42,013 nt of DNA from an uncultured Candidatus Marinamargulisbacteria bacterium (GCA_964540745.1 CAZIOF010000163.1:1-42013); one strand, 5' to 3'; shown: positions 1,445 to 42,013, counted from the first letter of the stretch. Program-made: numbers and translations. The notes: generated from the sequence alone by a model not told the origin.

Positions 1445-1972
1445 ATAAATATACTAGATGTAGGAATCATTATCGTCTTACTCTACAATGGGTTTACAGG
1501 ACTTCGACGAGGCCTATCTCGGATACTATTTAATATTATAGGGATAGGCTTAGGCGCTACATTAGGACTTGTTCATTATCCCCATATCGCCTCAGTATTA
1601 GAACAACTTCTATATATCCCATCGCCTTACTCCGAATTTTTGGGCTTTGGGATTATACTCTCTACCATCTTTATCATCTCTATCACCCTAGGGCAACTTT
1701 TTGAAAAAATACTCAAACTCACCTTTTTAGGATCATTTAATGCATTAGGTGGACTACTTTTAGGTAGTATAAAAGGTCTCTTTATTTGTCTCCCCTTTTT
1801 AATCCCCATGACCTATTTCAAAAGCCCTATTCTAGACACCTCTCATATTGCGCCTTACCTTCTACCACTGACTCGAAAACTTCTAAAATATATCAATACC
1901 TCATTACTTGAACTGCCTCCTGAAATAACGTCTAGTCTAGACATTATCTTCCAGGCACATCGGTTACTTTGA
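1445..1972 (+). CDS. cvpA: CvpA (colicin V production) family membrane protein; start codon unresolved (candidate ATA at 1445)
   Basis: The ORF track starts at TTG 1640. The same frame is open back to the TGA at 1433-1435 and encodes NILDVGIIIVLLYNGFTGLRRGLSRILFNIIGIGLGATLG, a typical CvpA N-terminus (compare E. coli MVWIDYAIIAVI...LIRGF, from memory). GAGGTGA Shine-Dalgarno at 1434-1440. There is no in-frame ATG/GTG/TTG between 1436 and 1639. Confidence 0.65.
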   Translation: MNILDVGIIIVLLYNGFTGLRRGLSRILFNIIGIGLGATLGLVHYPHIASVLEQLLYIPSPYSEFLGFGIILSTIFIISITLGQLFEKILKLTFLGSFNALGGLLLGSIKGLFICLPFLIPMTYFKSPILDTSHIAPYLLPLTRKLLKYINTSLLELPPEITSSLDIIFQAHRLL

Positions 1973-3366
1973 TACCCCCTCTCGACCCCATTGAAAACGC
2001 TATAAGACGCTATCTTGACCATAAGTATTCTCTTTTTGATCTACTTTCCCACGCAGAAAAGGCCCTCCATAATAATAGATGTACCCGCCCCTATAAAGTA
2101 GCCTCGGTAACAGTAAAAGGTGATAGCCTTTTATTTGGATCCTTTATCCCAAAAATCCTAATAAAAGCAGCAGGAATAGCCCTCGTTGAACATGATCAAA
2201 TGGAAACAGAGACCCTCATCCCAGCCCTAAGATCGACTAATCCAGACCTATTAATGATCTCATGTTTACTCAACTCCGCCCTTACCCATATCCAAAAGAT
2301 ACTCGTAATATTAACAAACCATCAGATACAGATCCCTATTATTCTTGGAGGTCCCCTCGCAACAAAACCATCAGTCCATCAACACTTAACAACGCTCTAT
2401 AAAGGACCTCTCTTTATCCCTAAAAATAGCGTCCATGCCGCCTACCAGATCATTCAAATAGGAACACAGACCCACCAATCAGACACGGTAAAGACGCGTG
2501 CACCTTCTCCTACTAAAAAAACAAACAAAAAACAAACATCATCCCACATACCCATCACCCGATCACCCCATATCCAACCCGTAACGATCATTCCTAAAGT
2601 CCCAGATTATGAGAGACATATTGAAGACACCTTCAATATAGAACAGTTATGGGGTCTTATTAATCCTCGGACATTGTACGGTATGCATTTAGGGTTTAGA
2701 GGCCCTTTCCAAAAACGACTATCTGAAGGCGACCCCACCGCAAAATCCCTCAACCGTCGAGTTACAGTTATCAAAAATAGTATCAAAGACACGCCCTCAC
2801 TTATCACACCAAAAGCTATCTGGCAGTTTTTTAGATGTCAATCTAAGGGAAACACTATCACCATAATGGCCCCTGACAGCAATAAAACCCTAGCTGTATT
2901 TAAATGTCCGAGACAATCACACAAAAAACGACTCTGTTTAGCCGATTTTATCGATGAAGAACGCCCAGATGTGATTGGCCTCATGGTCGTAACCATTGGA
3001 ACGACTATCCAAACCAAGCTAGACGCCATGATTGAAAAGAATCAACTTATAGATGCCCTCATCTTGAACGCTATTGGCATGCAAACAGCAGAAGCCTTAG
3101 CTGAACATGTCCATCAACAGATGCGGCAAAAACTTGGGCTCAAAGAAAAACGAATGACTCTTGAAACGGTAGTAACCGCTAACTATACCGGAAAACGCTA
3201 TAGTTTTGGGTATTCGGCATGTCCCGATCTCTCCCAACAAAAAATCCTCTTTGAACTTCTAAACCCAGAGGAGATTGGCGTCACATTAACCGATATTCAC
3301 ATGATGGTCCCCGAAGGAAGTGTCTCTGCATTAGTGTTTCATCATCCTCAAGCAACTTATTTCTAA
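1969..3366 (+). CDS. MetH C-terminal-like protein: degenerate B12-binding-like domain plus AdoMet activation domain; no Hcy or folate domains
   Basis: The C-terminus RYSFGYSACPDLSQQKILFELLNPEEIGVTLTDIHMMVPEGSVSALVFHHPQATYF matches the Met_synt_B12 activation-domain signature. The N-terminal Rossmann-like part carries GDSLLFG (2119-2139) where MetH has GDvHDIG. TTG start overlaps the cvpA stop (tTTGA, 1969-1972). Confidence 0.75.
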   Translation: MIPPLDPIENAIRRYLDHKYSLFDLLSHAEKALHNNRCTRPYKVASVTVKGDSLLFGSFIPKILIKAAGIALVEHDQMETETLIPALRSTNPDLLMISCLLNSALTHIQKILVILTNHQIQIPIILGGPLATKPSVHQHLTTLYKGPLFIPKNSVHAAYQIIQIGTQTHQSDTVKTRAPSPTKKTNKKQTSSHIPITRSPHIQPVTIIPKVPDYERHIEDTFNIEQLWGLINPRTLYGMHLGFRGPFQKRLSEGDPTAKSLNRRVTVIKNSIKDTPSLITPKAIWQFFRCQSKGNTITIMAPDSNKTLAVFKCPRQSHKKRLCLADFIDEERPDVIGLMVVTIGTTIQTKLDAMIEKNQLIDALILNAIGMQTAEALAEHVHQQMRQKLGLKEKRMTLETVVTANYTGKRYSFGYSACPDLSQQKILFELLNPEEIGVTLTDIHMMVPEGSVSALVFHHPQATYF

Positions 3367-3458: not shown

Positions 3459-5135
3459 CTAATTCTTCTCAAAAGAAAAATCCCCCTTACTAAATATTTC
3501 AGGAACCCTCTCTCTAGCAATAAGCTCTTCAGTAACAATAAACTCATACGTGTCCCACCTCCCTGAAGCCCCTTCCATACGAGGTCGATACGTCTCTACT
3601 TTTACTTTTGTTACTTTATATGGAAAGCTATCCTCCAAAGTCCATATCATATTACACTTTTTATCTAAAAAAACCTCTGCTTGATACAACGGTTTATCAT
3701 CAACTGGATAAATCTTAAACTGAATTAATCCTTCTACACCCAAAGATAACAAAACCTTCAACTCCATAAAGAATTCACGCCGATGCAACATGTCCTTTAT
3801 CATAAGGGGCGCTAAGATGAAAGTACTTATAGCTCTCTGATAAACGCCCCCTGACAAATCATTACGAAAAACATGTTCGCTTATTAACATTGAATCTCTA
3901 TAATCTTTTATAGTTAGACCTGTTTTATGAAGAACACCTCTTCTGCCAGTTCCTTCGTAAAGCAATGCCGCATATTCTTTGACACAAATCTCTTTATCAA
4001 AGATAACAAATCCTTTCCTCCCCAAAAAACTGCACCAAACATAATAGTCCGATTCCCCACTCCCTATAAAATAACTAAACTCTTTTCCTTTAATTCGAAA
4101 TACATCTGTATCTAACACCTTTTGAAAAGGAATTGATAAACTTCCCTGCCATACGTTATCTCTCTCTTTTTCTTCAAAATAATAAATCGTCATAGAAGCC
4201 GCTGAATTTGAAAATAGATACTGCCGTAATAAAACTAAATGGGACGCCTGGTCACTCACCCAAAAATAATCCTCATTGTATGTGCTTTCGATAGGTAATA
4301 ATCGGTCTCCTACCCCATAGGTTTCTAAATGCTTTCCTATACCGGCAGTCCCCTCAACAAAGAAAATATTAGGCCGCGACAACACACTAAAGCTTGTAAT
4401 AAATGACTGTAATTGAGCCGAATCAAAAATCATATAAAGATATCTCTTTTTCGAGGAATACGTAAATCCTCGAACATATATTTTGTATGGTGTATAAATA
4501 GTGCTCATCTCTTCTTTCGTTAAATGCAATAGATAGCTATCAAATCCAAACTCTCTTAGCTTTTGAACAACATAATGACTTCGGGTACCAGCATAACATC
4601 TGAATACTATTGGCCTATCTAAACGAAATCCAAGTCCTCTTAAATAGGTTTCTACGCCCGTCTTATCATTAAGATAAAAGAAAGGGCTTAGAGAAACACC
4701 CAGTTTAACCGTAGAAAAAGCCTCATAGTTAATAACAGTATCAAGAGTCAATAAATTTGACATAAACTGAAAGGTCTTTGGGCTACCTACAATCTCTGCC
4801 ATTGTTATCTTATAATTCCCTTCATCTAAACCTTTCTTAATTAACCCCAGTTCTATATCCTTACTGATATCACCATAAATACTCTTCAAATCCATCTCTT
4901 TTAACTCTTGATAATCCAAAAAGATAAAAAAGCCCCCCACAATTAACATACCCACAGCACCTAACAAAAACAAAACCTTAAAGACAGGCTTAACCCGTTT
5001 AATAAAAAGCATTATCGTTGCCAAAAATGACGATATCAAATACCAAATCCCTGACCCCAACGCCCCCAATAATAATTGGGTTTCCGTAAGGGGCAAAAAG
5101 CCATATATGCCACTATAAATAAACTTATTTTTCAC
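3459..5135 (-). CDS. Membrane protein with rhodanese-like domain and ~350-aa C-terminal region of unknown function
   Basis: 558 aa with a GTG start. Two or three hydrophobic N-terminal helices (aa ~20-75). Rhodanese active-site loop FRCYAGTRSHYVVQKLREFGF (CxxGxRS; Cys codon 4596-4598). 11-nt overlap with the upstream ORF. Confidence 0.75.
   Translation of the reverse strand: MKNKFIYSGIYGFLPLTETQLLLGALGSGIWYLISSFLATIMLFIKRVKPVFKVLFLLGAVGMLIVGGFFIFLDYQELKEMDLKSIYGDISKDIELGLIKKGLDEGNYKITMAEIVGSPKTFQFMSNLLTLDTVINYEAFSTVKLGVSLSPFFYLNDKTGVETYLRGLGFRLDRPIVFRCYAGTRSHYVVQKLREFGFDSYLLHLTKEEMSTIYTPYKIYVRGFTYSSKKRYLYMIFDSAQLQSFITSFSVLSRPNIFFVEGTAGIGKHLETYGVGDRLLPIESTYNEDYFWVSDQASHLVLLRQYLFSNSAASMTIYYFEEKERDNVWQGSLSIPFQKVLDTDVFRIKGKEFSYFIGSGESDYYVWCSFLGRKGFVIFDKEICVKEYAALLYEGTGRRGVLHKTGLTIKDYRDSMLISEHVFRNDLSGGVYQRAISTFILAPLMIKDMLHRREFFMELKVLLSLGVEGLIQFKIYPVDDKPLYQAEVFLDKKCNMIWTLEDSFPYKVTKVKVETYRPRMEGASGRWDTYEFIVTEELIARERVPEIFSKGDFSFEKN
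4521..4823 (-). other. Rhodanese-like domain (approximate bounds) within the 558-aa ORF
   Basis: LLTLDTVINYEAF ... DRPIVFRCYAGTRSHYVVQKLREFGFDSYLL follows the rhodanese pattern: a substrate-loop Cys, then G-x-R-S, then the alpha helix and Gf..v..L. Confidence 0.6.
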
Positions 5136-5457
5136 AAAGATAAAGGCCGTCCTTTTCGATTATTAATTCACCCAATGGTGACAGAAGACGAGTTGTAATA
5201 CTTGGACTCACAATAATAGGTAATCGCTGTTCACGTGCAACAAGAGCAAGGTGCGATAAGGAGGATCCTGCTTGAGAAATAATTAACTGAATACGGCCAA
5301 GATACAATACATATTCAGAATAAAGGCCTGACACAACAATAATAGTCGTATTGTCATGAAGCTCTTTATACGACTGAACCATCTCGTACCTCCCCCGTTG
5401 AGGAAGACTCAACTCAGGGAATAGCGTTTGATACGAATCGCTCCCCTTAATCAACAT
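5125..5457 (-). CDS. Stand-alone PEP-utilizing enzyme mobile (swivel phosphohistidine) domain protein
   Basis: 110 aa. TTIIVVSG...LIISQAGSSLSHLALVAREQRLPIIV matches the PEP-utilizers signature G-G-x-x-S-H-x-A-I-x-A-R-E-x-G-I-P, with the His codon at 5251-5253. 11-nt overlaps with both neighbouring ORFs. Confidence 0.8.
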   Translation of the reverse strand: MLIKGSDSYQTLFPELSLPQRGRYEMVQSYKELHDNTTIIVVSGLYSEYVLYLGRIQLIISQAGSSLSHLALVAREQRLPIIVSPSITTRLLSPLGELIIEKDGLYLCEK

Positions 5458-6223
5458 CTATATCCCTCAATTTTTCACGAACCTCTGACCAAGAAAGGTC
5501 AAACACACAAGCCATCCCCATTCTCTTTTCCACACCCAAAAAAATGGCTCTCATCTCCGAAATAACTTTTAATGCCTCATATTTCCCCAACTCTCGTATT
5601 CCAACTAAGACTGCGACTTTATCAATATCATCATTATCTATCACCTGTGAAAAAGGTTGTTTATCCAAACATGATAATCGATTAGCTGCTTCTCCAAAAC
5701 GCATTAATTCGTCTGTTGATAGTTCAGAAAATCGTGGGCTAGAAAACTCATAAGGGTTCAAGCTGCAATGCCCAAATGACTTATCGAACGCCAATCGTTG
5801 AATATCACCTTTCGAAAGTAACGCCAATGTTTTATAGAGCTCTTCTTCTTTTGTCAAAAAAGGTAACGTTTCAAACGTTCTTTTAGGCCAAAAATAAGTC
5901 AATACCATATTATTAAACAATAGTTGTTCAAACAATTTAGAGAGCTCCAAATAACATACCTCTAATCGCTGTAAAAAGGTCCCTTGAGCATCTGTTTCAA
6001 ACATATAGTCTTCAAAAAAAGAAATTAAAGAACGGTAATCATGTCGAAAATAGGCATGAACCCTTGTTAAAAAAACTAATTTTTTAAATGGGTTTTTAGT
6101 TGATAATTGGTTGTGATAAGATACGGCAAACTGAGATTGAATAGCAATCAACGATCGAGATAATGGAGACGGGTCTCGTATCCATTCCTCATCACATACT
6201 GCGATTGTTGATTTAATACTCAA
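5447..6223 (-). CDS. Hypothetical helical protein; C-terminus resembles the segment preceding the His domain in PEP synthase / rifampicin-phosphotransferase-like enzymes
   Basis: 258 aa with a TTG start. GAGGTGG lies immediately upstream, too close for normal spacing, so the start is uncertain. The C-terminal VLVGIRELGKYEALKVISEMRAIFLGVEKRMGMACVFDLSWSEVREKL fits the ..RE..K....lR..l..lg..l.....dvF.L...E.. pattern, recalled from memory. Confidence 0.6.
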   Translation of the reverse strand: MSIKSTIAVCDEEWIRDPSPLSRSLIAIQSQFAVSYHNQLSTKNPFKKLVFLTRVHAYFRHDYRSLISFFEDYMFETDAQGTFLQRLEVCYLELSKLFEQLLFNNMVLTYFWPKRTFETLPFLTKEEELYKTLALLSKGDIQRLAFDKSFGHCSLNPYEFSSPRFSELSTDELMRFGEAANRLSCLDKQPFSQVIDNDDIDKVAVLVGIRELGKYEALKVISEMRAIFLGVEKRMGMACVFDLSWSEVREKLRDIDVD

Positions 6224-6667: not shown

Positions 6668-7744
6668 ATGTGGCAAGGCTTAATTAATGAATATCGTGAG
6701 TATCTTCCTGTTTCTGAAAAAACACCCGTTGTAACACTTATGGAAGGGAATACCCCTTTAGTAAAACTAAACCATCTCCCTAAAAAATATGGTATAGACG
6801 CTGACTGGTATGCTAAATTTGAAGGCAATAATCCCACTGGATCCTTTAAGGACCGAGGCATGACCATGGCCATCTCAAAAGCGAAAGAAGACGGGGCCAA
6901 AATCGTCATGTGTGCGTCAACAGGAAATACCTCTGCCTCCGCTGCAGCCTACGCCTCTAGAGCTGGCATGACCTGCTGTGTCCTTATCCCAAAAGGTAAA
7001 ATTGCACTGGGGAAATTATCACAGGCCATGATGCATGGCGCCATTGTCCTACAAATCGAAGGTAATTTTGATGTGGCCTTAAATCTTGTCCGAGACATTA
7101 CCGAAAACTACCCCATAGCCCTTGTTAATTCCGTTAATCCTTATCGAATTGAAGGCCAAAAAACAGGTGCCTTTGAAATTTCAGACGAACTAGGTGATGC
7201 CCCAGATTTCCATTTTATTCCTGTAGGTAACGCAGGAAATATTACGGCTTACTGGAAAGGCTATAAAGAATATTTGGACAAAGGAAAAATAACACACCTC
7301 CCAAAAATGATGGGCTTTCAAGCAGCCGGATCAGCGCCCATTGTTGAAGGAAGAATTATTGAACATCCTGAAACCATTGCCACAGCCATCCGTATCGGAA
7401 ATCCTGCAAGCTGGAAATCCGCCGAAAACGCACGTGATGAATCCCATGGCAACATCGATATTGTCACAGATGATGACATTACAGTAGGACAAAAAGACCT
7501 TGCTCTAGACGGCATCTTTTGCGAACCCGCCTCTGCGGCATCCATCGCTGGGGTGATTAAACATCATCAAAAATCACCATTCAAAAAAGGACAAACCATT
7601 GTCTCCATTATCACTGGCCATGGCCTCAAAGACCCTAATAGAGCCATCGAAATATCAGCAACCCCTCAATTAGTCAAAGGTTCAAAAGACGCTATTTTAT
7701 CTATACTAAGTCCTTATATGACAACAGAAACAACAACACGTTAA
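6668..7744 (+). CDS. thrC: Threonine synthase
   Basis: 358 aa. N-terminus [34 protein letters not shown]-lysine motif [11 protein letters not shown], and [10 protein letters not shown]. Confidence 0.93.
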
Positions 7745-10003: not shown

Positions 10004-12660
10004 CAAAACGATTATTACTGTCATTAGCCAGCATAACAGTCATCATCATCCTATTTTATCTCGGTCATATCTTTCAAAATCCACAAACCTCATCTGGGAT
10101 CCATCTCTTCATCGATCCCAAATATATCGCATTAATGGACGTCTACAAAAAAGAAGCTCGAAGCCATATCATTGAAAACAATAAAGGTATTATTCTCCCA
10201 AAACACAAACAAAAATTTCCTTGTAAAATACAGTTCAAGAATAAACAAATGAACGCCTCTATTCGGCTCAAGGGAGATTGGACCGATCACCTGGAAGACG
10301 ATAAGTGGTCATTTCGAATTACCCTGACTGGGAAAGATAGACTTTTCGGACTGAAATCATTTTCACTACAACACCCTAAACGACGCAATTACATCTATGA
10401 ATGGATCTATCATGCACTCTTAAAACAAAAACAACTCATCTCTCTTTATTATGACTTCATTCCGTTCTATCTCAATAATAGCTATCAAGGACTATACGCC
10501 ATAGAAGAGCATATGACTAAAAACCTCTATTTTCATAATCAACGACGAGACAGTGTTACCCTAAAATTTGATGAGACCCTATATTGGGCCGATCTAGCCT
10601 TAAATGGCCGTCACGGACACTATTTACAATCAAGAGAAACCGCGCCTATTAGACCGTTTCAAGAAAAAAATGTCCTTCATTCACCTAAAAAAAGAGCCCT
10701 CTTTGATCTAGGTCGATATCTATTAGAAGGCTTTTCTACAAAACAACTATCCACCTCACAAGCATTCAATATGGATACCCTTGCACAATTTATTATACTG
10801 TCCGAATTTATGGGCGCTAAACTTCATCAAATCTACTGGCATAATGCCCGCTTCTATGTGGATCCTATTACCGCAACACTAGAGCCCATCGGTTTTGATT
10901 CAGATTCAGGTGAAACACTTAAAAAAAGAGAGGCTCATCGATTCTTACTTGCTGAATTTGATAACTTCTTTTTCCTCTGGTTCGAAGACCCCCTGTTCTA
11001 CGCCACCTATATGAAACACTTATACACACTCGTTCACAACGATCTCTTAGCCCCTATCAAAACGCCTTTACTAAACCGTCACCAACAGCTAACCCAAACC
11101 CTACTAAATAGCCCCCCATTTACGGTCACATCCAATATTATTCTTGATAATCAACAGACACTAAAATCAGCATTCACACCTAAAAGCCCTTTTTCAATCA
11201 CGTCCAAATCGCCCAAAATGATCGGCATCACAAATGATGAAAAACTCCCCTTTGTCATTACTAAGATAAACACTGATTCTTCCCCAACTCTAATACAAGA
11301 ACGTCTCATTATCTACCCAAAAAGAACACATCCAAATCACCATCAAGAAACCATCGCACTCCCTTACCCTGTTCACGGTAATAACACCATAAATATTCAC
11401 TTCCATCCATTAGGACATCCCCATCTCACACAATCCTACAAGACCCAAATAAACAACAACAGTAAAAAAACCAAACAACAATACTCCTTCTCCACAAAGG
11501 CCCCCTCTAAACAACTCCCCTTCTTATTAGCCTATCATCACAGTCAGCCACAACATCACCTAATAGTTGGAAACCCTCATCCCGTGCCGATGATCGTCAC
11601 AGATGTGATACAACAAGAAAAAAGCCTAATAAAAGTATCACTAACACTTCCTAAAAAGACCGTTAACACCCCCATCACTTATCAGACAATCTCCTTACCA
11701 GATACTATAAAACAGGATGCCCCCATCACACTCCAGTATCATGACACAAATAACAAGCACAACACCTCTGAGGTCCTTGCTTGGGACAGATATCCCACTG
11801 ATATCACGCAACATAGTCCCTTTCTTAACCCAGCATTCAAAAAAACCCCCCCATTTTGTGAGATAAATCATGACACAAAGTTTATCCAAATAAAGCCAGG
11901 AAACTGGACCTTAGATCGACCATGGATAACACCAAAAGGATATCGCTTAAACTGCAATAAAAACACCTCTTTAACCCTAGAAAATAACGCCTTCATTATC
12001 AGCCAAGGCCCTTGCTATTTTAAGGGTACAAAAGAAGCCCCCATCCAGTTCATCGCGAAACACGACGGTCAAGGACTTCTCATTACAGCCAAAGTCCCTT
12101 CTCAATTTAGCTATGTCAATATCAGCGGATTACAACCACCCAAATATGGAAAATGGGACTTAACAGGCGGGCTTACCGCCTATAACACAACCCTCTCCCT
12201 CAGCCATTGTACATTTAGTAACAATCAAAGTGGCGATGATTACGTCAATATCATTCGGTCATCATTTTCCATCTCAGACTGTCATTTTCAAGAGACAAAA
12301 CGAGACGCTATTGATAGTGACTTCAGTTCTGGCTCTATTAAACACACCTCATTCAAATCTGTAGGCCAAGATGCTATTGATACGGCCAATAGCACACTCA
12401 CACTCTTGGATATTACGATTGAAGATGTAAAAGACAAAGGAATCAGCGCAGGTGAAAAAAGTCATCTCAATATCACCTCACTCACTATCAAAAATGCTGA
12501 AATCGGTATCGCTAGTAAAGACGACTCACTTGTAGAGGGTAGCAAGATAACAATTACAAAAACAAAAAAGCCGCTTTTAGCCTATTCTAAAAAGGCTGGT
12601 TTTGGAGACGGTCTGTTTGCCATCACAGACCCACCAACCAATCCTAACAAAAAACAGTGA
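10000..12660 (+). CDS. CotH-kinase-family domain protein with N-terminal TM anchor and C-terminal right-handed beta-helix repeats
   Basis: IRLKGDWTDHLEDDKWSFRITL...FSLQHPKRRNYIYEWIYHALL...YQGLYAIEEH fits the CotH pattern. The C-terminal ~230 aa shows PbH1-like repeats (LSLSHCTFSNN, FSISDCHFQE, SGSIKHTSFKS, LTLLDITIEDV, LNITSLTIKNA). A His/Pro/Gln/Thr-rich low-complexity insert sits at aa ~440-530. Confidence 0.7.
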   Translation: MTKRLLLSLASITVIIILFYLGHIFQNPQTSSGIHLFIDPKYIALMDVYKKEARSHIIENNKGIILPKHKQKFPCKIQFKNKQMNASIRLKGDWTDHLEDDKWSFRITLTGKDRLFGLKSFSLQHPKRRNYIYEWIYHALLKQKQLISLYYDFIPFYLNNSYQGLYAIEEHMTKNLYFHNQRRDSVTLKFDETLYWADLALNGRHGHYLQSRETAPIRPFQEKNVLHSPKKRALFDLGRYLLEGFSTKQLSTSQAFNMDTLAQFIILSEFMGAKLHQIYWHNARFYVDPITATLEPIGFDSDSGETLKKREAHRFLLAEFDNFFFLWFEDPLFYATYMKHLYTLVHNDLLAPIKTPLLNRHQQLTQTLLNSPPFTVTSNIILDNQQTLKSAFTPKSPFSITSKSPKMIGITNDEKLPFVITKINTDSSPTLIQERLIIYPKRTHPNHHQETIALPYPVHGNNTINIHFHPLGHPHLTQSYKTQINNNSKKTKQQYSFSTKAPSKQLPFLLAYHHSQPQHHLIVGNPHPVPMIVTDVIQQEKSLIKVSLTLPKKTVNTPITYQTISLPDTIKQDAPITLQYHDTNNKHNTSEVLAWDRYPTDITQHSPFLNPAFKKTPPFCEINHDTKFIQIKPGNWTLDRPWITPKGYRLNCNKNTSLTLENNAFIISQGPCYFKGTKEAPIQFIAKHDGQGLLITAKVPSQFSYVNISGLQPPKYGKWDLTGGLTAYNTTLSLSHCTFSNNQSGDDYVNIIRSSFSISDCHFQETKRDAIDSDFSSGSIKHTSFKSVGQDAIDTANSTLTLLDITIEDVKDKGISAGEKSHLNITSLTIKNAEIGIASKDDSLVEGSKITITKTKKPLLAYSKKAGFGDGLFAITDPPTNPNKKQ

Positions 12661-35186: not shown

Positions 35187-36956
35187 CTATCCACTACTAA
35201 ATAGATCCTTTCGAATAGCATGTAAATCTATCACACGCCAATCTAGAACATGATGTAATGTATACGCTTTTAATATGTCTATAAGTGGGTGAGGCGACTG
35301 GATTAATAAATGAGAGACCTCATACTCACATAAATCCTTTAAAACCGTTAATGTGGCTGTTGTCTGAGAATAAAATGCAATGACCACTGTTAACCGTTGT
35401 TTCCATTCTCCAAAATAATCATTATCTTTTTGAAACTTATTGGCAGGGATCTTTGTCCCAACTAAAATGGGAACCCCTGTTGTCAAACGAAAATCAATAA
35501 TATTAGGGGGGATCACATAAACCTGTCCAGATTGACGTGATAATTTAGCCCACTCCATAATACGGTGCAATCTAGAACCATTTTTCTCACGAAAATCAGA
35601 CCTCGTATAATCGACTCCCCAAAACACTGTAAGCACAATAAGAAAAGCCCCTACAAACGGAACAGCTATATAATGAGAAGCAGGTTTCAACCTTTCAATA
35701 ATCCAAGATAATAAAACAACTAACGCAAGGGGAACCATCACTACTGAAAGACGCCAAGGCATTAACTCATTGAAAAACAGATTCTCTAAAGAAGACGCCA
35801 CTAAGGCCATAAAAGATAGCCCTATAATAATAACGAGACCAAACCAAAAAAGGCGTTTGATAAACCCCTGACGTACTAAACATGCCGCCGTAATAACCAT
35901 TATCAATTGGAAAAGAACACTGCCATTAAACCAAACCATCGGGTCCGTATGAAACGCATACATGGTTTTAATAAAATAGTCGTGTGCCGGTAATAGTTTT
36001 GAACGAAGCGGATGAGAAAAAAATTGGATTAAATAATAAGCAAAGAGAGCCCCGTTAACTGTAAAGGTAAGAAAAAGTGCTTTAAAATACGGTTTTGTTT
36101 GATAACAAAGCCATAGCATCCCTATAAGAACGAGACCTGCAATCCCTATAATGGTGGGTAAAAATAATAAATAAGGCCCAAAAGAACTTCCCCACGATAC
36201 GACATAAAGAATCGAACTCATAATCACACCTAAAAGATTGAATAAAAGAAAGAGGCGATACTGAGAGAGCCTTTCTTTATACACAGATACAATTTTGAAT
36301 CCAACAATACAAAACACGACAAAAAACAAGCCAAAATGAAGAAAAACGGCAACAAAATCACATAAATACGATAACTTTCTTTGCCCCTTTATCCAAAACC
36401 ATATCCCAAGAAATAAAAATACACCGAACAAACTGGGCTGAAAATACGTATTCATCACATATTGATTAGCCACGCCCCAATGAAGAAAAGACGCCCCTTC
36501 ATTAAAATAAGCCTGAAACCCTGGGAAAAGATCAAGCCCCTTATTAAAAAAATCATAAAGAAAACGAGAATGAAAAAAGGTCAGCAAGGAAAAAAGGACA
36601 TAATACAATGTACTACCATAGTTTATTCCCGATAGAAAACAACTAATCCCAAGTAACGAATGAATATAAACACCTACCAAACATAACCAGTAGATGTAAA
36701 ACCATATCGAAGATAAATAGGTGAATGTAAGAAACGTAATGCCCGTAAATATGGGCATAGCTTCGCTTACTTTAACAATCCAATCATTAGCTAAAAAACC
36801 ATAACCCGCCTGTGCCATACCGTGCAGAAAATAATGATTTTGATTACTATAAAACAGAGGTTTCCAAGAATAGGCCAGACAAAACAATGCCGTTAAAATA
36901 ACAGTGTTTAATAAACGATAAAGAGTAATACGGTTAAATAATTTAAGTATTGTCAT
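35187..36956 (-). CDS. Polytopic integral membrane protein (about 12 or more TM helices) with ~130-aa C-terminal soluble domain; function unknown
   Basis: 589 aa and very hydrophobic, with conserved-looking NQNHYFLHGMAQAGYGFLANDW near the N-terminus. Its ATG overlaps the PKS stop (ATGA, 36953-36956). Confidence 0.75.
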   Translation of the reverse strand: MTILKLFNRITLYRLLNTVILTALFCLAYSWKPLFYSNQNHYFLHGMAQAGYGFLANDWIVKVSEAMPIFTGITFLTFTYLSSIWFYIYWLCLVGVYIHSLLGISCFLSGINYGSTLYYVLFSLLTFFHSRFLYDFFNKGLDLFPGFQAYFNEGASFLHWGVANQYVMNTYFQPSLFGVFLFLGIWFWIKGQRKLSYLCDFVAVFLHFGLFFVVFCIVGFKIVSVYKERLSQYRLFLLFNLLGVIMSSILYVVSWGSSFGPYLLFLPTIIGIAGLVLIGMLWLCYQTKPYFKALFLTFTVNGALFAYYLIQFFSHPLRSKLLPAHDYFIKTMYAFHTDPMVWFNGSVLFQLIMVITAACLVRQGFIKRLFWFGLVIIIGLSFMALVASSLENLFFNELMPWRLSVVMVPLALVVLLSWIIERLKPASHYIAVPFVGAFLIVLTVFWGVDYTRSDFREKNGSRLHRIMEWAKLSRQSGQVYVIPPNIIDFRLTTGVPILVGTKIPANKFQKDNDYFGEWKQRLTVVIAFYSQTTATLTVLKDLCEYEVSHLLIQSPHPLIDILKAYTLHHVLDWRVIDLHAIRKDLFSSG

Positions 36957-39900
36957 ATGTGTACCTTATCCTCTTCTTCTTTTTTTAGCCTCGCATAAAT
37001 AAGGGCCCCCACGTCACGCATGTGACGACATTCCATCAAGGAAGACATCGTTAATCCCACATCGTAAGTATCATTTATAAACGTATACAGCTCAATAAGA
37101 ATCACAGAAGAAGAAGACAGCTCAACTAAAGACGTATCAATCGTTACAGACTGAGATGAGGAACCCAGTCGCTGCTCAAGAAAAGAAAGACAATGACTAG
37201 CCATCTCAGAAATATCGTTATCGGAATCAGAGGATAATCCAAAAGTCTCTCCAGAAGAGGCCGTAATCCGTACTTGATGTTTCTCAGAAACTATTAAACG
37301 GTCTGAAGACGCTTCTTCCAAAATAACATGAGAATAAACATTTCCTGCCCCTAAAATTGTAAGCGCGCCACGTCGCGAAGTAGACCCTAAAGACCAATGC
37401 GTGATGTCTTTACAGAGGGTTACCTGTGAACTAATCGCCTTAAAAACCCCTGAGTTATCGTCAATACAGGACGGTAATTTTTCCTGACGCTCCAACTGCA
37501 TCATCACTTTAAATAAACTGGCAATACCAGAAGCTGCCTCTAAATGTCCTATAAGAGGTTTAACCGTCCCTACCAAAATACCTGTCCCAAAATACGATGA
37601 CACCGCTTCCAGTTCCACACTATCACTAAACGGAAATGAAGAGGCATGTAAGTCAAGACACCCGATTGTTTGAGCAGAACATCGTTGGTGATATGCGTTC
37701 TGTAACACTTGTGTCAATGCATGAGGATCCACAAACGGGTATTGGGCAATATTACCCACAGACACTTGAACACAATTCAATAGTTTACTCCGAACAGGAT
37801 CTCCATCACGAATTGCCCTCTTATACCCTTTTAAAATCAAAACCCCACCACCCTCACCCATGACACACCCGTCTCCAAACTCTGTAAACGGCGCCATAGT
37901 TTGGGTCTTCGATAAAACAGACGCTCTCTTTAAGGATTCAAAATGCTCAGAATAATGGAACAGATTAATCGCCCCCACTATGGCTAAATCAACATCATCA
38001 TTCACAAGTGCTTTATAAGCGAGATCCAAAGCAGAAATCGCTGAACTACAGGCCGTATCAAGCACTAAGCTCGGGCCCGACAAGTTAAAGGTAAACGAAA
38101 GCCTATTTGCCAAGGAATAGGCAATAGGTGAGGGGCCTGTTGCCCCTACATAAATACCGACTCGCTTATCTTTATAGGTTTGAATGAATGACTGTTTATC
38201 CAGCCCCATCTCTAAAATAGCGTGTTCAAGCCAATAATGAAGATAGGCCTCACGAATATCCTGATCAGGAGGCACCACTATCTGTTTAACAACGGCCTCT
38301 GGTAACTGTCCTATACGAAGAGGTGACGATAACCCCAACCCCGACTGATCCACACGATCCCCCTCATAAACCGAAAGCCCTGAGCGCGTTTCTTTCAACA
38401 GTGTCCAAAAATCATCTGGGCTTTCTGCGCCTGGGAAGGACCCAAAATACCCAATAATAGCAACGGTTTCATTAGGGGTTTCATTAGGGGGTTCATTGGG
38501 GGTTTCATTGGGGGTTTCAATGTCCTCATCAATATAAATCGAAGCGTCTGTATTATCAGAGAGCTCTTTATCTATAAGAACCTCCCTTTTAAAATACCCT
38601 ATAACGTCATTTAAAGTAGGATAATCATAAAAAAGTGATTTAGGTAACGACCCAAAACGCTCTTCTAAACGTACTAAAATACCCATCATTAAAATAGAGT
38701 CCAGCCCATAATCACGAAAAGGCTTATCTAAGTCAATCGAAGATATTTTCAGCTCTTCACAAATAGCCTGTTGAAGAAACACTCGATCAAGAGAACAATC
38801 ATCGCATTCCATTTTCTCTAAAGTATCAGGCGTTTCTGTCAATAAAGGGAGATCCTCTTTATCTACAGCTACCTGAGCTGATATAACTGCCTGATGATGC
38901 GCATAATCATGATAAACCCCATCAACAACAGAGGACACAAACCCTGCTTTCGAAAGACAATCACACCAACTTTGAGAGGACAACAACGGTGACAGAGATA
39001 ACCGAATCTCCGAATCCTTATAGGCCCACCAACCATCTGTAAGGCCAAATGTTAACGTGGAAAATTCAGAAACAGAAACGATCTCATTTAAAATTAACGT
39101 GCCTCCAGGTTTCAATACCTGGGTTAAATGTTCCAGTGCTCCTTGAATATCCGGAACCACATGCACCACGTTCGTCCCAACAATAATATCCACGCTAGCA
39201 GGGTCTATCCCTTGAGAAATGAGAGGCCGTTCAATATCAATAATCTGATACGACAGCCTTGGATAACGCTGCCCCCAACGCTTTTCAGCCTCCATTAAAA
39301 ATTTTCTTGATACATCAGAAAATATAAAATGAACGTTTTCAGAAGGCAAATTTTTCAAAAGGAATCCGGTGGTACTCCCTGTTCCTGCACCTATTTCTAA
39401 AATACAAAGAGAGCCTTTCTTCTGAGAAACAACCTCAGTAAAAACCTTAGCTGTTAACTGATTATAATAATCGGCTATAGGATTATCTCGATAAAGGCCC
39501 TCAACAAGATCCAGTTTACCTTCAGAAAAAAGTGCCATTGAACCAGAGATAACACCCCTTAACACATCAGAATAATGAGATATACAATGATCCAACAATC
39601 GGATATAGCCCCCCAATTGAATCCTTTTCAACGTTCCAATCACACCCTGTATATCTGTTTCTGGTAAAGTCGAAGACAAACAATATGTCTCGCCATCCCG
39701 GTGTAAGATCCCTGCTTGCTCAAGACAGGACAACTGACACCGTATAAATGAATGATATTTAGGAATAACGCCTAAATGTTCACAAACTTGTCCTTCGGTA
39801 TAAGCCTGCATCTCCGACACAAAAAGACCTTGTCTTTGATAAAAGATCAGCAAGTGGTGATGACAATAGGTAGCCAAGGTCAATAATCCCTCAAAAGCAC

Positions 39901-42013
39901 GCTGTTGCACCCCCGACATATCACGTGTAAAACCACGATTACCATTACTAGAAAAAGAGCGTATAACCCCCATCCGAGATAACGTTTGTAAATGCCCCTT
40001 GATAACACCTACCTGAGAGAGAGAAGACGCCTCAATCCTTTCAATCGTATCAAAACCTTCTTCTATTGAAAAAGGCTCAACCCCTAAATGTTCCATACTA
40101 CGTCGATACTTTTCACTTAAAAAGAGCTGCCCCAATCCCACATCCCAAAGGCCCCAATTAATCGTTTTAACAGGGCTCCCATTACAATAGTGATGGCGTG
40201 AAAAATAATCTAACCAAATATTGGCCATCCCATAGTCACTTTTTCCTAAAGCAGGTGCAATCGCTGCTATAGACGAAAAACACAGAAACAACACTAAAGG
40301 CTGGTCCTTGACCAACTCCCATAAATGACTCGTTCCTTGTACTTTAGGTGCATAAATATGTTGAATATCTGAAAGTTTCTTGTCCTGCCAATGAGTCTTA
40401 TTAGAAAGTGTTCGGGCGGCACAGTGATACACACGTCTAACCGGCCCCAACCGATGGATACTATGACTAACCTCATTCATCCTGTCCTTATCTTCAAGAG
40501 GGACCCAATGAAAGGAATACTCACACCCATTTTCGTCAAGATAGCCGCATAGATCTTGATAGGATCCATATCGTTCTGACTGTTCAGGCGTAGGTTCTGT
40601 TGAAGAAATACCAATAAATGTCTTTACACCTTTCGTAACCAAATATCGGATAAGTGCTAATCCAATCCCTCCAGTAAACCCCGTCACAACCACACATTCA
40701 GAAGAATAATGAACAGATTCAGCGCCCCCCAAGTTAATAGGCCTCCAAGACGATCGAAACCTAAAACCCTTGTCATAACAAATCTCAGGACCATCAGCCA
40801 TGGTCGATAATTCACCAAACCAACGGTCAGGCGTATTAACCTCATGAGTATCAATAGAAATTGTTTTATAGGGATAGTTATATTCCCGCGACAAAGAAAG
40901 AAGAAGACTGGCAGTCAAGGCCCCATGAAGTGTTCCTGAACGTTCTGACTGTGGAAACACAGTTTGATAAGTGACATGAATAATCCCCTGTTCAGCACCA
41001 TAAAACTGCGTATACAGTTGAAAAAAACGCCATTTACCTAAAGATTCACGCAAGGGATCCTGACCCTCGTAAATAACACAATCAGAAATATCAATCAGAC
41101 CCAAAATACCCGGATACTCCACACGTAACTGTTCAAAAAAGGAATCAACACCCTCCCGATCATAAAAATTAAATCCAAAACGAGACTCTTGTTGTTCTGT
41201 ATGAAAAAGAGGAACAAGATATGGGTGGGTGTCCTTCCAGTTTGAAATCTGGTCCTCTTGCTCTGGACAAAGTAATAAAAGGTAATAATTATCAGTTCTT
41301 AAAACAGAAGGGCTATCACAAACTTCCCAGTACTTTTCCGTACTCGTTAGAGGAATGCTAGAAGACAATCTCTCTTTCTTTGAAACCGAAACAGCTATCT
41401 CAGGCCCTGTATACGGCCTCGCTGAAAAAGGAAGCCATTGTTTATCAAATGAATAAAGAGGGAGTCCCTGCATCATAGGCACCGAAAAAGAGTATATTGT
41501 CGCCCAGGAAACCTCCTCCCCACGCATCCATTTAACACCCAATAACGGCGCCTCTTCTCCTCCTTCTTCGCAACAATCATCAATACATTTATAGGGACGC
41601 GGGCCTCCTTCTTGGAAAGACTGAATGTCTCGATTTAAAGACATCAATAACTGAGCCGTAGTTTCAACAGGAACTGCATACCGCCAAGCCATAGGCTCCC
41701 GTCCTGTCTGTAAGGTATAACAAAGGGACAAAAGCTGTTCATAAGACCACTCTTTACCCCAAAAAAAGTCACGATAAGAGAGGATTAACCGCTGAAGAGA
41801 CGCCTCACTAAAGGCAGACAGAACAAACCACAAATCAACAGTCTGTTGAACAGGACCAGAACGATGTTGTGGCGCTTGTTCTACAATAACATGGGCATTA
41901 GACCCACCTGCCCCAAATGAGCTAACACCCGCAATCAAAGAGTCCCCACCCCTATCCCAAGATTGCAATGTAGAAGGAATATACAACCCACTTCCCTCTA
42001 AAGAAATATCAGG
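36953..42013 (-). CDS. trans-AT-type polyketide synthase, N-terminus beyond the window: [KS]-linker-KR-cMT-ACP-KS-ACP
   Basis: The frame stays open to the window edge (PDISLEGSGLYIPSTLQSW...GVSSFGAGGSNAHVIVEQ is the end of a KS), so the Met at 41986 is internal. Domain motifs are listed in the sub-features. No GHSxG acyltransferase motif is seen. Confidence 0.95.
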   Translation of the reverse strand, partial: PDISLEGSGLYIPSTLQSWDRGGDSLIAGVSSFGAGGSNAHVIVEQAPQHRSGPVQQTVDLWFVLSAFSEASLQRLILSYRDFFWGKEWSYEQLLSLCYTLQTGREPMAWRYAVPVETTAQLLMSLNRDIQSFQEGGPRPYKCIDDCCEEGGEEAPLLGVKWMRGEEVSWATIYSFSVPMMQGLPLYSFDKQWLPFSARPYTGPEIAVSVSKKERLSSSIPLTSTEKYWEVCDSPSVLRTDNYYLLLLCPEQEDQISNWKDTHPYLVPLFHTEQQESRFGFNFYDREGVDSFFEQLRVEYPGILGLIDISDCVIYEGQDPLRESLGKWRFFQLYTQFYGAEQGIIHVTYQTVFPQSERSGTLHGALTASLLLSLSREYNYPYKTISIDTHEVNTPDRWFGELSTMADGPEICYDKGFRFRSSWRPINLGGAESVHYSSECVVVTGFTGGIGLALIRYLVTKGVKTFIGISSTEPTPEQSERYGSYQDLCGYLDENGCEYSFHWVPLEDKDRMNEVSHSIHRLGPVRRVYHCAARTLSNKTHWQDKKLSDIQHIYAPKVQGTSHLWELVKDQPLVLFLCFSSIAAIAPALGKSDYGMANIWLDYFSRHHYCNGSPVKTINWGLWDVGLGQLFLSEKYRRSMEHLGVEPFSIEEGFDTIERIEASSLSQVGVIKGHLQTLSRMGVIRSFSSNGNRGFTRDMSGVQQRAFEGLLTLATYCHHHLLIFYQRQGLFVSEMQAYTEGQVCEHLGVIPKYHSFIRCQLSCLEQAGILHRDGETYCLSSTLPETDIQGVIGTLKRIQLGGYIRLLDHCISHYSDVLRGVISGSMALFSEGKLDLVEGLYRDNPIADYYNQLTAKVFTEVVSQKKGSLCILEIGAGTGSTTGFLLKNLPSENVHFIFSDVSRKFLMEAEKRWGQRYPRLSYQIIDIERPLISQGIDPASVDIIVGTNVVHVVPDIQGALEHLTQVLKPGGTLILNEIVSVSEFSTLTFGLTDGWWAYKDSEIRLSLSPLLSSQSWCDCLSKAGFVSSVVDGVYHDYAHHQAVISAQVAVDKEDLPLLTETPDTLEKMECDDCSLDRVFLQQAICEELKISSIDLDKPFRDYGLDSILMMGILVRLEERFGSLPKSLFYDYPTLNDVIGYFKREVLIDKELSDNTDASIYIDEDIETPNETPNEPPNETPNETVAIIGYFGSFPGAESPDDFWTLLKETRSGLSVYEGDRVDQSGLGLSSPLRIGQLPEAVVKQIVVPPDQDIREAYLHYWLEHAILEMGLDKQSFIQTYKDKRVGIYVGATGPSPIAYSLANRLSFTFNLSGPSLVLDTACSSAISALDLAYKALVNDDVDLAIVGAINLFHYSEHFESLKRASVLSKTQTMAPFTEFGDGCVMGEGGGVLILKGYKRAIRDGDPVRSKLLNCVQVSVGNIAQYPFVDPHALTQVLQNAYHQRCSAQTIGCLDLHASSFPFSDSVELEAVSSYFGTGILVGTVKPLIGHLEAASGIASLFKVMMQLERQEKLPSCIDDNSGVFKAISSQVTLCKDITHWSLGSTSRRGALTILGAGNVYSHVILEEASSDRLIVSEKHQVRITASSGETFGLSSDSDNDISEMASHCLSFLEQRLGSSSQSVTIDTSLVELSSSSVILIELYTFINDTYDVGLTMSSLMECRHMRDVGALIYARLKKEEEDKVHI
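36983..37219 (-). other. C-terminal ACP-like domain with atypical attachment motif (approximate)
   Basis: SLVELSSSSVILIELYTFINDTYDV; four Ser codons at 37106-37117 where GxDS is expected. Confidence 0.5.
37322..38464 (-). other. Divergent ketosynthase domain (approximate)
   Basis: VAIIGYFGSFPG, LDTACSSAISALD (Cys 38048-38050), DLHASSFPFSDSVE in place of EaHGTGTxxGDxxE, GTVKPLIGHLEAASG, and GAGNVYSHVILEE. The usual MDPQ motif is not recognisable. Confidence 0.7.
38465..38520. repeat. 12-nt tandem repeat (about 4.5 copies) encoding (E-T/P-P-N)n in the ACP-KS linker
   Basis: + strand units: ggtttcattagg / ggtttcattagg / gggttcattggg / ggtttcattggg / ggtttcaa. They translate on the - strand as ETPNETPNEPPNETPNETV. 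Confidence 0.9.
38582..38809 (-). other. ACP domain (approximate)
   Basis: FRDYGLDSILMMGILVRLEERFG; Ser codon 38696-38698. Confidence 0.85.
38957..39889 (-). other. C-methyltransferase domain (approximate)
   Basis: ILEIGAGTGSTTGFLL (Glu 39395-39397), DIIVGTNVVHV, LKPGGTLILNE. Confidence 0.8.
39917..41389 (-). other. Ketoreductase domain including structural subdomain (approximate)
   Basis: VVVTGFTGGIGLALIRYLVTKG (about 40630-40700) and ...FSSIAAIAPALGKSDYGMANIWLDYF (catalytic Tyr/Asn). Confidence 0.8.
41876..42013 (-). other. C-terminal end of a KS domain (partial)
   Basis: AGVSSFGAGGSNAHVIVEQAP, followed by a KS flanking linker (FVLSAFSEASLQRLI...YTLQTGREPMAWR...LPLYSFDKQWLPF). Confidence 0.85.

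Follow-up and report, generated by a model that had tools for sequence, protein, structure and literature searches.

A putative split H component of an RPH-family dikinase encoded next to an orphan membrane protein in an uncultured Candidatus Marinamargulisbacteria bacterium

Three consecutive minus-strand open reading frames (ORFs) in a stretch of DNA from an uncultured Candidatus Marinamargulisbacteria bacterium (GCA_964540745.1, CAZIOF010000163.1:1-42013) appear to encode parts of a phosphotransfer enzyme of the rifampin phosphotransferase (RPH) family together with a membrane protein. The whole stretch of 42,013 nt is referred to here as the window, and all positions are counted from its first letter. 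ORF1 (5447-6223, minus strand; 258 aa, TTG start) is predicted to be all-helical and corresponds to the substrate-binding domain (SBD) piece of the H component of an RPH-family dikinase. ORF2 (5125-5457, minus strand; 110 aa, ATG start) corresponds to a complete stand-alone swivel phosphohistidine domain, and ORF3 (3459-5135, minus strand; 558 aa, GTG start) to an orphan membrane protein. The neighbouring genes on both flanks, out to position 12660, are all located on the plus strand: an aminotransferase gene, purE, a CvpA-like fragment and the C-terminal half of metH on one side, and thrC, apgM, an epimerase gene and a gene for a beta-helix protein on the other.

The three genes are tightly packed. 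As read from the sequence, the stop of ORF1 overlaps the start of ORF2 by 11 nt (ATGTTGATTAA, 5447-5457, minus strand), and the stop of ORF2 overlaps the GTG start of ORF3 by another 11 nt (GTGAAAAATAA, 5125-5135, minus strand), in agreement with a preliminary description of the locus, which had reported both overlaps as well as the same coordinates, lengths and orientation opposite to the flanks. The ORF2 frame is shut by a TAG directly upstream of its ATG, and a Shine-Dalgarno-like GAGGGA is found 7 nt upstream of this ATG. The start of ORF3 was called in two ways: one gene caller used the GTG, and another picked an ATG (M42; 5010-5012, minus strand), which gives a protein of 517 aa and a 112-nt gap after ORF2 instead of an overlap.

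Using a model built on the codon usage of the bona fide minus-strand genes of the window, we obtained own-frame coding scores of +0.14 to +0.21 bits per codon for ORF1-3, compared with -0.5 to -1.0 for the other frames; control genes gave the same pattern. Since the own-frame scores match those of native genes, the three ORFs are not chance reading frames, and they run uninterrupted for 258, 110 and 558 codons in DNA of 38% GC. The locus was also found in three more assemblies from the same study (L001, L082 and L083), of which L001 carries ORF1-3 intact, the other two being short contigs that end inside the locus. Over the 13.6 kb shared between the window and L001 there are 28 single-nucleotide polymorphisms (SNPs), 27 of them in the 10.9 kb outside the three ORFs; the 2.77 kb of the ORFs contain one, a synonymous change in ORF1, where the flank rate predicts ~6.9 (Poisson estimate based on two assemblies, P~0.008). 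With native codon usage and one synonymous SNP against 27 in the flanks, ORF1-3 look maintained.

Outside these assemblies the proteins are close to being orphans. A word-indexed search of 5.8 billion proteins returned only self matches or 99%-identical fragments for ORF1 and ORF2 and only itself for ORF3, and 80 thrC-anchored loci in other genomes contained neither synteny nor homologs of ORF1-3. The 444-nt region upstream of the operon has no Rfam match and a folding z-score of 0.07, by which a riboswitch or structured leader was ruled out for this region, and promoter and terminator scans at the locus gave nothing above shuffled sequences. A defence or phage origin of the three ORFs was also rejected, there being no PADLOC match and only noise from PHROGs, as was the presence in the operon of a PEP-utilizers_C TIM barrel, an Enzyme I N-terminal domain or GWD-type domains, for which no Pfam matches were found.

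ORF2 is the most readily assigned of the three proteins. It matches the Pfam PEP-utilizers family PF00391 with E=1.4e-7 and 31.4 bits, above the gathering score of 23.1, and in-house hidden Markov models (HMMs) of RPH-like C-termini with 28.9-31.7 bits, while shuffled sequences reach at most 3.9; its weak NCBIfam matches are mostly to RPH- and phosphoenolpyruvate (PEP)-synthase-like enzymes with the swivel at the C-terminus. Alignment to PEP synthase 8a8e and to His189 of Enzyme I places the predicted phosphocarrier at His69 (codon at 5251-5253, minus strand). The surrounding loop SQAGSSLSH keeps the Ser, the first Gly and the His of the swivel signature T/SxxGGxxxH (PMC12167813), the second Gly being replaced by Ser, and ALVARE around the catalytic His is retained as well. 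His69 is preceded by 68 aa and followed by 41, as in the whole swivel domains of relatives (the catalytic His of Listeria RPH is residue 825 of 867), and therefore the entire domain is contained in ORF2. Alignment and profile scores thus show ORF2 to be a complete swivel domain with a predicted phosphocarrier histidine, and confirm the earlier proposal that the middle ORF is only such a domain.

ORF1 has no Pfam, NCBIfam, PDB, PADLOC or PHROG match. Its only detectable relatives are proteins of ~1320-1353 aa annotated as 'PEP/pyruvate-binding domain-containing protein', such as WP_260018694.1 of Leisingera sp. S132 and WP_102856130.1 of Phaeobacter inhibens P92. In a tblastn search against plasmids all 60 of 60 matches of ORF1 fell into one Phaeobacter/Leisingera gene family (best E=0.01), and a pairwise BLASTP comparison aligned ORF1 aa 133-248 with aa 1057-1172 of the 1344-aa Leisingera sp. 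S132 protein at 28% identity (E=6e-9). The matched region of the Leisingera protein lies directly upstream of its swivel domain (aa 1260-1325), which is matched by ORF2. An HMM constructed from four Roseobacter proteins (Leisingera, P. inhibens, Phaeobacter sp. G2 and Tritonibacter) scored ORF1 at 22.8 bits, the best of 500-1000 shuffles reaching 1.0, and ORF2 at 12.7 bits, the best shuffle reaching 2.6. Generic SBD profiles of non-Roseobacter origin gave no significant match (-0.8 to 5.8 bits), and ORF1 ranked second among the six-frame ORFs of the window against a generic SBD-plus-swivel HMM.

The SBD-homologous segment defined by pairwise BLASTP and the family HMM covers ORF1 aa 138-249 (5477-5812, minus strand) and corresponds to aa 1054-1172 of the Leisingera protein. 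It includes an RPH-family motif, FGHR..gE.dLs.PRW.E, at aa 150-167 (FGHCSLNPYEFSSPRFSE; 5723-5776, minus strand), found by alignment with Listeria RPH and with Halorubrum, Thioclava and Roseobacter proteins; its counterparts are FGHRATGELDLSRPRWRENP in Halorubrum, MGHRSIFDYELSSPRYSEAP in the Roseobacter proteins and residue 579 in Listeria RPH. In the ORF1 copy R is changed to C and W to F. These alignments show that ORF1 carries the distal part of an RPH-family SBD including the GH(R)...PR(W)xE motif, and the Roseobacter comparison in particular bears out the suggestion of the preliminary description that the first ORF ends in the segment that normally leads into the swivel domain.

In the two-component RPH-type dikinases HpeHI, CreHI and PpsAB, an H component consisting of SBD and swivel domain works with an I component carrying the ATP-grasp domain, and HpeH by itself can move phosphate between the phospho-product and the substrate (PMC12167813). 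Because the C-terminal half of ORF1 is related to the part of the SBD found just before the swivel domain in RPH-family dikinases, we conclude from the sequence comparisons that ORF1 and ORF2 correspond to an H component divided, at the boundary between SBD and swivel domain, into two separate, translationally coupled proteins. The split point falls exactly on this boundary, and the two genes overlap start to stop. Together they comprise 367 aa, with the motif at residue 150 and the His 177 aa farther on.

The Roseobacter relatives of ORF1 are single-chain fusion proteins in which these domains are joined to a membrane module. Their order of parts is a signal or transmembrane (TM) hairpin, two rhodaneses, a YidC-like core, an ATP-grasp domain, the SBD and the swivel domain. 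Both rhodaneses are Pfam-significant, the first having a CHNGNRS loop; a YidC/Oxa1-type five-TM core (60KD_IMP) is identified by Pfam/NCBIfam at aa 412-584 and PPDK_N at aa ~611-875. At the N-terminus, a TM hairpin whose loop carries a charge of +5 comes after a signal-like segment. The fusion genes were found on at least 80 plasmids, and in the plasmid collection they are confined to Roseobacteraceae (Phaeobacter, Leisingera, Tritonibacter and Parasedimentitalea), with examples at L084:1833-5867, L086:7246-11271, L088:1494-5456 and L087:4180-8241. They adjoin a gene for a PhnD/SsuA-like binding protein in all three annotated loci inspected and are followed by a gene for a ~760-aa hybrid response regulator in two of the three. 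No curated family spans the whole fusion protein, and our literature search found no paper describing it or any other rhodanese-dikinase system. The YidC core runs from outside to inside, and for this reason the rhodaneses of the fusion are predicted to be periplasmic and its dikinase part cytoplasmic.

The fusions provide support of the Rosetta-stone type, at the domain level only, for an association of rhodanese and membrane modules with this dikinase subfamily. They do not show homology of ORF3 to their N-terminal module. By analogy, ORF3 may have the same sidedness relative to ORF1 and ORF2 as the corresponding parts of the fusion have to each other.

The N-terminus of ORF3 forms a predicted TM hairpin (4917-5075, minus strand), identified by hydropathy scan and charge count, with TM1 at aa 21-45, the loop KRVKPVFK (+4) and TM2 at aa 54-73; the 22 residues after TM2 have a net charge of -4. 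In a single-sequence AlphaFold2 model (overall pLDDT 38.5) the helices 18-44 and 50-80 are the only region with pLDDT 65-79, so that hydropathy and model agree on two TM helices at the N-terminus, where TM helices had been noted before. According to the positive-inside rule, the ~485 residues after TM2 are most likely outside the cell, and with the M42 start ORF3 would be a signal-anchor protein of the same outward sidedness. If the soluble part of ORF3 is outside the cytoplasm, no direct phosphate exchange with ORF2 would be possible. Homologs were not obtained by an exhaustive phmmer search of 1.84 billion representative proteins (self and one chimeric fragment only), by tblastn against plasmids (nothing at E<=10) or by scanning genome, metagenome and viral contigs with back-translated patterns. 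Because ORF3 is without any homolog, conserved co-occurrence of the three gene families, which the preliminary description had proposed as a test, cannot be shown.

The preliminary description had assigned a rhodanese domain with an intact catalytic loop to ORF3. What we find is a resemblance over ~40 aa: a rhodanese-like beta-strand, Cys loop and helix at aa 165-203 (4527-4643, minus strand; PDB phmmer), with the predicted catalytic Cys180 (4596-4598) in CYAGTRS and the segment reading IVFRC180YAGTRSHYVVQKLREFGFD. The CYAGTRS loop fits the six-residue pattern CxxGx[R/T/S] of rhodanese active sites. With a 70-aa query, PDB phmmer gives four matches (E 0.15-1.1), each to a different rhodanese and each with the catalytic Cys in register. 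Within the Leisingera protein, BLASTP, HMM and hhalign all place the best local match to ORF3 at the Cys loop of the first rhodanese, VVLFCHNGNRS. The distance from TM2 to the rhodanese Cys is 107 aa in ORF3 (to Cys180) and 108 aa in the fusion. On the other hand, the reversed query matches catalases at E~0.23, and the Roseobacter rhodanese HMM gives ORF3 -0.5 bits, a score equalled or exceeded by 409 of 5000 shuffles (P~0.08); with a control at a similar E-value and this P-value, the rhodanese is unproven. Pfam and NCBIfam report a rhodanese neither in the full protein (E<=1) nor in the region excised from it (E<=10), and the signatures DVR...GHIpGA and GG..W are missing.

The remainder of ORF3, aa 221-558 (3462-4475, minus strand), has no TM segment and no assigned domain; a low-confidence model suggests a beta-rich fold. 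It has no match in Pfam, NCBIfam, PDB, PADLOC or PHROGs, and a likeness to ribosomal protein S7 (E~1.3) was judged spurious. A YidC-like 60KD_IMP domain is not matched in ORF3, which has two TM segments only. An ATP-grasp domain in the C-terminal ~340 aa, of which the preliminary description saw a faint, permuted beginning, was rejected: a 13-sequence PPDK_N HMM run unfiltered (--max) gives -3.0 bits (rank 446 among 2000 shuffles), hhalign gives 0.2%, PF01326 is not reported at E<=10, and the Roseobacter whole-protein HMM is silent in this region. The same description had seen no clear PPDK_N anywhere in the operon, and Pfam, the in-house HMM and hhalign likewise find none. Its overall picture of a dikinase tethered to the membrane and to a sulfurtransferase therefore holds in part: the split SBD and swivel domain and a domain-level association with rhodanese and membrane modules are supported, while the permuted ATP-grasp is not and the rhodanese is seen at the motif level.

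The locus can best be explained as a lineage-specific, maintained split H component of a two-component RPH-family dikinase that is co-transcribed with an orphan membrane partner, to which we assign a probability of about 0.55. According to this explanation, ORF1 and ORF2 would assemble non-covalently, and His69 would receive phosphate from a donor that is not encoded here; this would be an I component of the ATP-grasp type encoded at another place in the genome, or else a small molecule that is itself phosphorylated. Phospho-His69 would then swivel to the ORF1 pocket and phosphorylate the hydroxyl of a small molecule. ORF3 would be a bitopic hairpin membrane protein with the Cys-loop region and the ~340-aa domain most likely facing outward; by analogy with the Roseobacter fusions it may serve as the membrane or extracytoplasmic partner of a cytoplasmic phosphotransfer module, and it would not be the ATP-binding domain.

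Several observations weigh against this explanation. No PPDK_N, ATP-grasp or other phosphoryl donor was found in the window and 13 kb beyond it in L001 (55 kb in total, all frames being covered for PPDK_N); with the ATP-binding piece absent, the locus has to be regarded as an unusual form, specific to one lineage, of an enzyme type already known and not as a demonstrated new system. The distance from motif to His is 177 aa compared with 222-274 aa in relatives, and the motifs are degenerate (GHR to GHC, PRW to PRF, and GG to GS before the His); together with the 31 bits of ORF2, these features could be expected of a relic no less than of a divergent enzyme. The N-terminal 137 aa of ORF1 match nothing, only the distal half of the SBD being detectable, and the single-sequence models of ORF1 (pLDDT 40.2) and ORF3 (38.5) are unusable. 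The rhodanese likeness of ORF3 is not statistically established, and since homologs are also absent, its tie to ORF1 and ORF2 rests on the gene overlap and the domain-level analogy. Finally, in L083, a short contig of another sample, an A-to-T change creates a TAG at ORF3 codon 49.

The last point belongs to the evidence for a decaying relic, in which ORF1 and ORF2 are nonfunctional remnants of a single H gene that has lost its ATP-grasp partner and ORF3 is a fast-evolving or spurious lineage-specific frame with no relation to them. In addition to the nonsense codon, L083 (1-445) joins the peptide deformylase gene def to ORF2 at about codon 25, and L082 (650-805) departs from the locus inside TM2 of ORF3. 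These sub-1-kb contigs with foreign ends are, however, probably assembly chimeras of low-coverage contigs, which is the simplest account of them; a strain-level rearrangement could also produce such junctions. A relic would explain the missing ATP-grasp within 55 kb, the degenerate motifs, an SBD-to-swivel distance ~45 aa below that of relatives, the weak Pfam score of ORF2 and the lack of homologs for ORF3 and the N-terminal half of ORF1. It fits poorly with three long intact ORFs in 38% GC DNA with native-like in-frame codon usage, a split precisely at the domain boundary, where start and stop overlap and a Shine-Dalgarno-like GAGG is present, a SNP density under that of the flanks with a sole synonymous change, and a retained catalytic His and ALVARE, and we consider it improbable. 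The related idea that ORF1 and ORF2 are fragments of one gene, raised in the preliminary description, is correct insofar as relatives carry their counterparts in one gene; a simple frameshift pseudogene is nevertheless less likely, given the domain-boundary split, the clean frames, the low SNP density and the maintained appearance of both ORFs.

Other explanations differ in the role given to ORF3. It could be an unrelated orphan envelope protein that shares a transcript with a working split H component and resembles a rhodanese Cys loop by chance. The absence of homologs and significant domain matches, the catalase matches of the reversed control, which show that PDB matches at E~0.2 arise by chance, and the 112-nt gap left by the M42 start all suit such a coincidence. 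But the four forward PDB matches each bring up another rhodanese, aligned at its catalytic Cys, three methods select the rhodanese Cys loop of the Leisingera protein, the spacing from TM hairpin to Cys equals that of the fusion, and the nearest relatives of ORF1 are the rhodanese-fused subfamily, so that we regard this, too, as unlikely. Very improbable in our estimate is the model of the preliminary description taken to its full extent, a complete permuted three-piece dikinase, all cytoplasmic, with a divergent PPDK_N at the ORF3 C-terminus beside a catalytic rhodanese. It gains from the position of ORF3, which occupies the place of the ATP-grasp gene after H as in the Rhizobium and Deinococcus pairs, from the fusion order of rhodanese, membrane region and ATP-grasp, and from collinear motif resemblances recognised by eye when BLAST aligns ORF3 aa 282-393 with Leisingera aa 646-755 (13 bits). 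In that alignment, however, the VRSS Arg, SFAG and DiEw are not conserved, the PPDK_N HMM, hhalign and PF01326 searches are negative, and the part after TM2 is predicted to face the exterior, a compartment that lacks ATP.

A maintained split H component with a membrane partner thus remains the preferred explanation. A broader and rather speculative possibility, which we consider unlikely, is that the operon and the Roseobacter fusions are three-piece and single-chain forms of one unrecognised class in which extracytoplasmic rhodaneses are coupled through the membrane to a cytoplasmic swivel-His dikinase. The role of the rhodanese domains in such a class would be to detect sulfur in the form of thiosulfate or persulfide, or to pass it on, and sulfur chemistry outside the cell would be linked to small-molecule phosphorylation or phospho-signalling inside. 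An active split H component would also mean that the swivel domain works as a free-standing phosphocarrier of ~110 aa, one step more modular than in the two-component enzymes. The window locus itself is of limited value for such questions, being known from a single lineage with two orphan proteins and no ATP-binding partner found within 55 kb. The Roseobacter fusion, apparently conserved and present in cultivable, genetically tractable hosts, is a better experimental entry point than the orphan ORFs of the window, and could be used to ask for the reason behind the coupling of sulfurtransferase-type domains to a dikinase.

The surroundings of the operon have features of their own. A plus-strand gene at 1969-3366 encodes a stand-alone C-terminal half of MetH (465 aa, with the B12-binding and activation domains), with no N-terminal homocysteine/pterin modules nearby, and a 110-aa plus-strand ORF at 1640-1972, not called in L001, has a match to the CvpA (colicin V production) profile that is restricted to the profile's C-terminal half, and may be a truncated gene. 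The best matches of thrC are 65-70% identical and mostly come from Candidatus Omnitrophota metagenome-assembled genomes; at 7068-7073 thrC has a 6-nt in-frame indel relative to L001. The SNPs relative to L001 are clustered in the aminotransferase gene (seven in 125-572) and in the beta-helix gene. Plus-strand GC skew is negative (-0.07 to -0.52) in all 1-kb bins regardless of gene orientation, and only one bin of the window lacks a positive AT skew; the monotonic fall of the cumulative skew indicates that the whole contig is on one replichore with an unusually strong strand bias, and as a result of this bias plus- and minus-strand genes differ in codon usage.

Positions 12582-41986 are occupied, mostly on the minus strand, by a hybrid natural-product cluster of nonribosomal peptide synthetase (NRPS) and trans-acyltransferase-style polyketide synthase (PKS) type. 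The cluster encodes a PP-binding protein, a hexapeptide acyltransferase, a B12-radical S-adenosylmethionine enzyme, two FG-GAP/ASPIC-UnbV proteins, a PfaD/NMO-type enoyl reductase, an AprA-like loading module (AprA_N, WH, MT2-like and two PP-binding domains) and a 2731-aa megasynthase with a condensation domain, two AMP-binding stretches, a ketosynthase and a RhiE/CurL-type linker; a 1677-aa ORF is located at 36953-41986 within the region. A tie of the operon to this cluster 6 kb off, such as RPH-like self-resistance by phosphorylation, is conceivable but without support, because four housekeeping-type genes lie between.

Comparison with known systems places the locus next to several enzymes. 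The closest are HpeHI, CreHI and PpsAB, which likewise consist of separate polypeptides, with the H gene first and an H component made of the SBD and a C-terminal swivel domain, the region matched by ORF1 and ORF2. In contrast to these pairs, H is cut in two here at the SBD/swivel linker and comprises 367 aa instead of ~600-640 aa, its motifs read GHC, PRF and GS, and the next gene is an orphan membrane protein without a recognisable ATP-grasp. Nearer in size and extent is the H component of a pair on the Deinococcus radiodurans plasmid CP1 (WP_010884080.1, a 408-aa 'PEP-utilizing enzyme', and WP_162177806.1, a 262-aa PPDK_N protein), with its motif at residue 121 and 46 aa after the His at position 362; this H component, however, is one polypeptide with a clear ATP-grasp gene next to it and no membrane or rhodanese partner. 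The CP1 pair (L090) is located ~2.7 kb from a Qat anti-phage gene in a defence-like neighbourhood. A 623-aa PPDK_N protein of the Treponema saccharophilum plasmid pTS2 (L093) is also found amid defence-like genes, with a cytidylyltransferase gene on one side and a cysteine desulfurase and a viperin-family radical S-adenosylmethionine gene on the other.

RPH-Lm of Listeria, which uses the swivel-His mechanism (PMC4844700), has an SBD of the same family, its motif at residue 579 and His825 answering to the ORF1 motif and to His69 of ORF2. It differs in being a single chain of 867 aa with an N-terminal ATP-grasp, and nothing points to rifamycin as the substrate of ORF1 and ORF2. For ORF3 the comparison is with the rhodaneses GlpE, PspE and YgaP, in which a CxxGx[R/S]S active-site loop follows a beta-strand and precedes a helix, as the CYAGTRS loop of ORF3 may do. 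Of these, PspE is periplasmic and YgaP is membrane-anchored. Unlike such single-domain rhodaneses, ORF3 is below any rhodanese HMM threshold and has an extra region of 340 aa. The Roseobacter fusions share the ORF1/ORF2-type SBD and swivel domain, the TM hairpin, a membrane region and the CxxGxRS loop with the operon, but they combine them in one chain and in a different order, with clear rhodaneses, a YidC core and PPDK_N, none of which is detectable in the window. On present evidence, the locus is a further fission of the known two-component dikinases, with an unusual partner and in one lineage.

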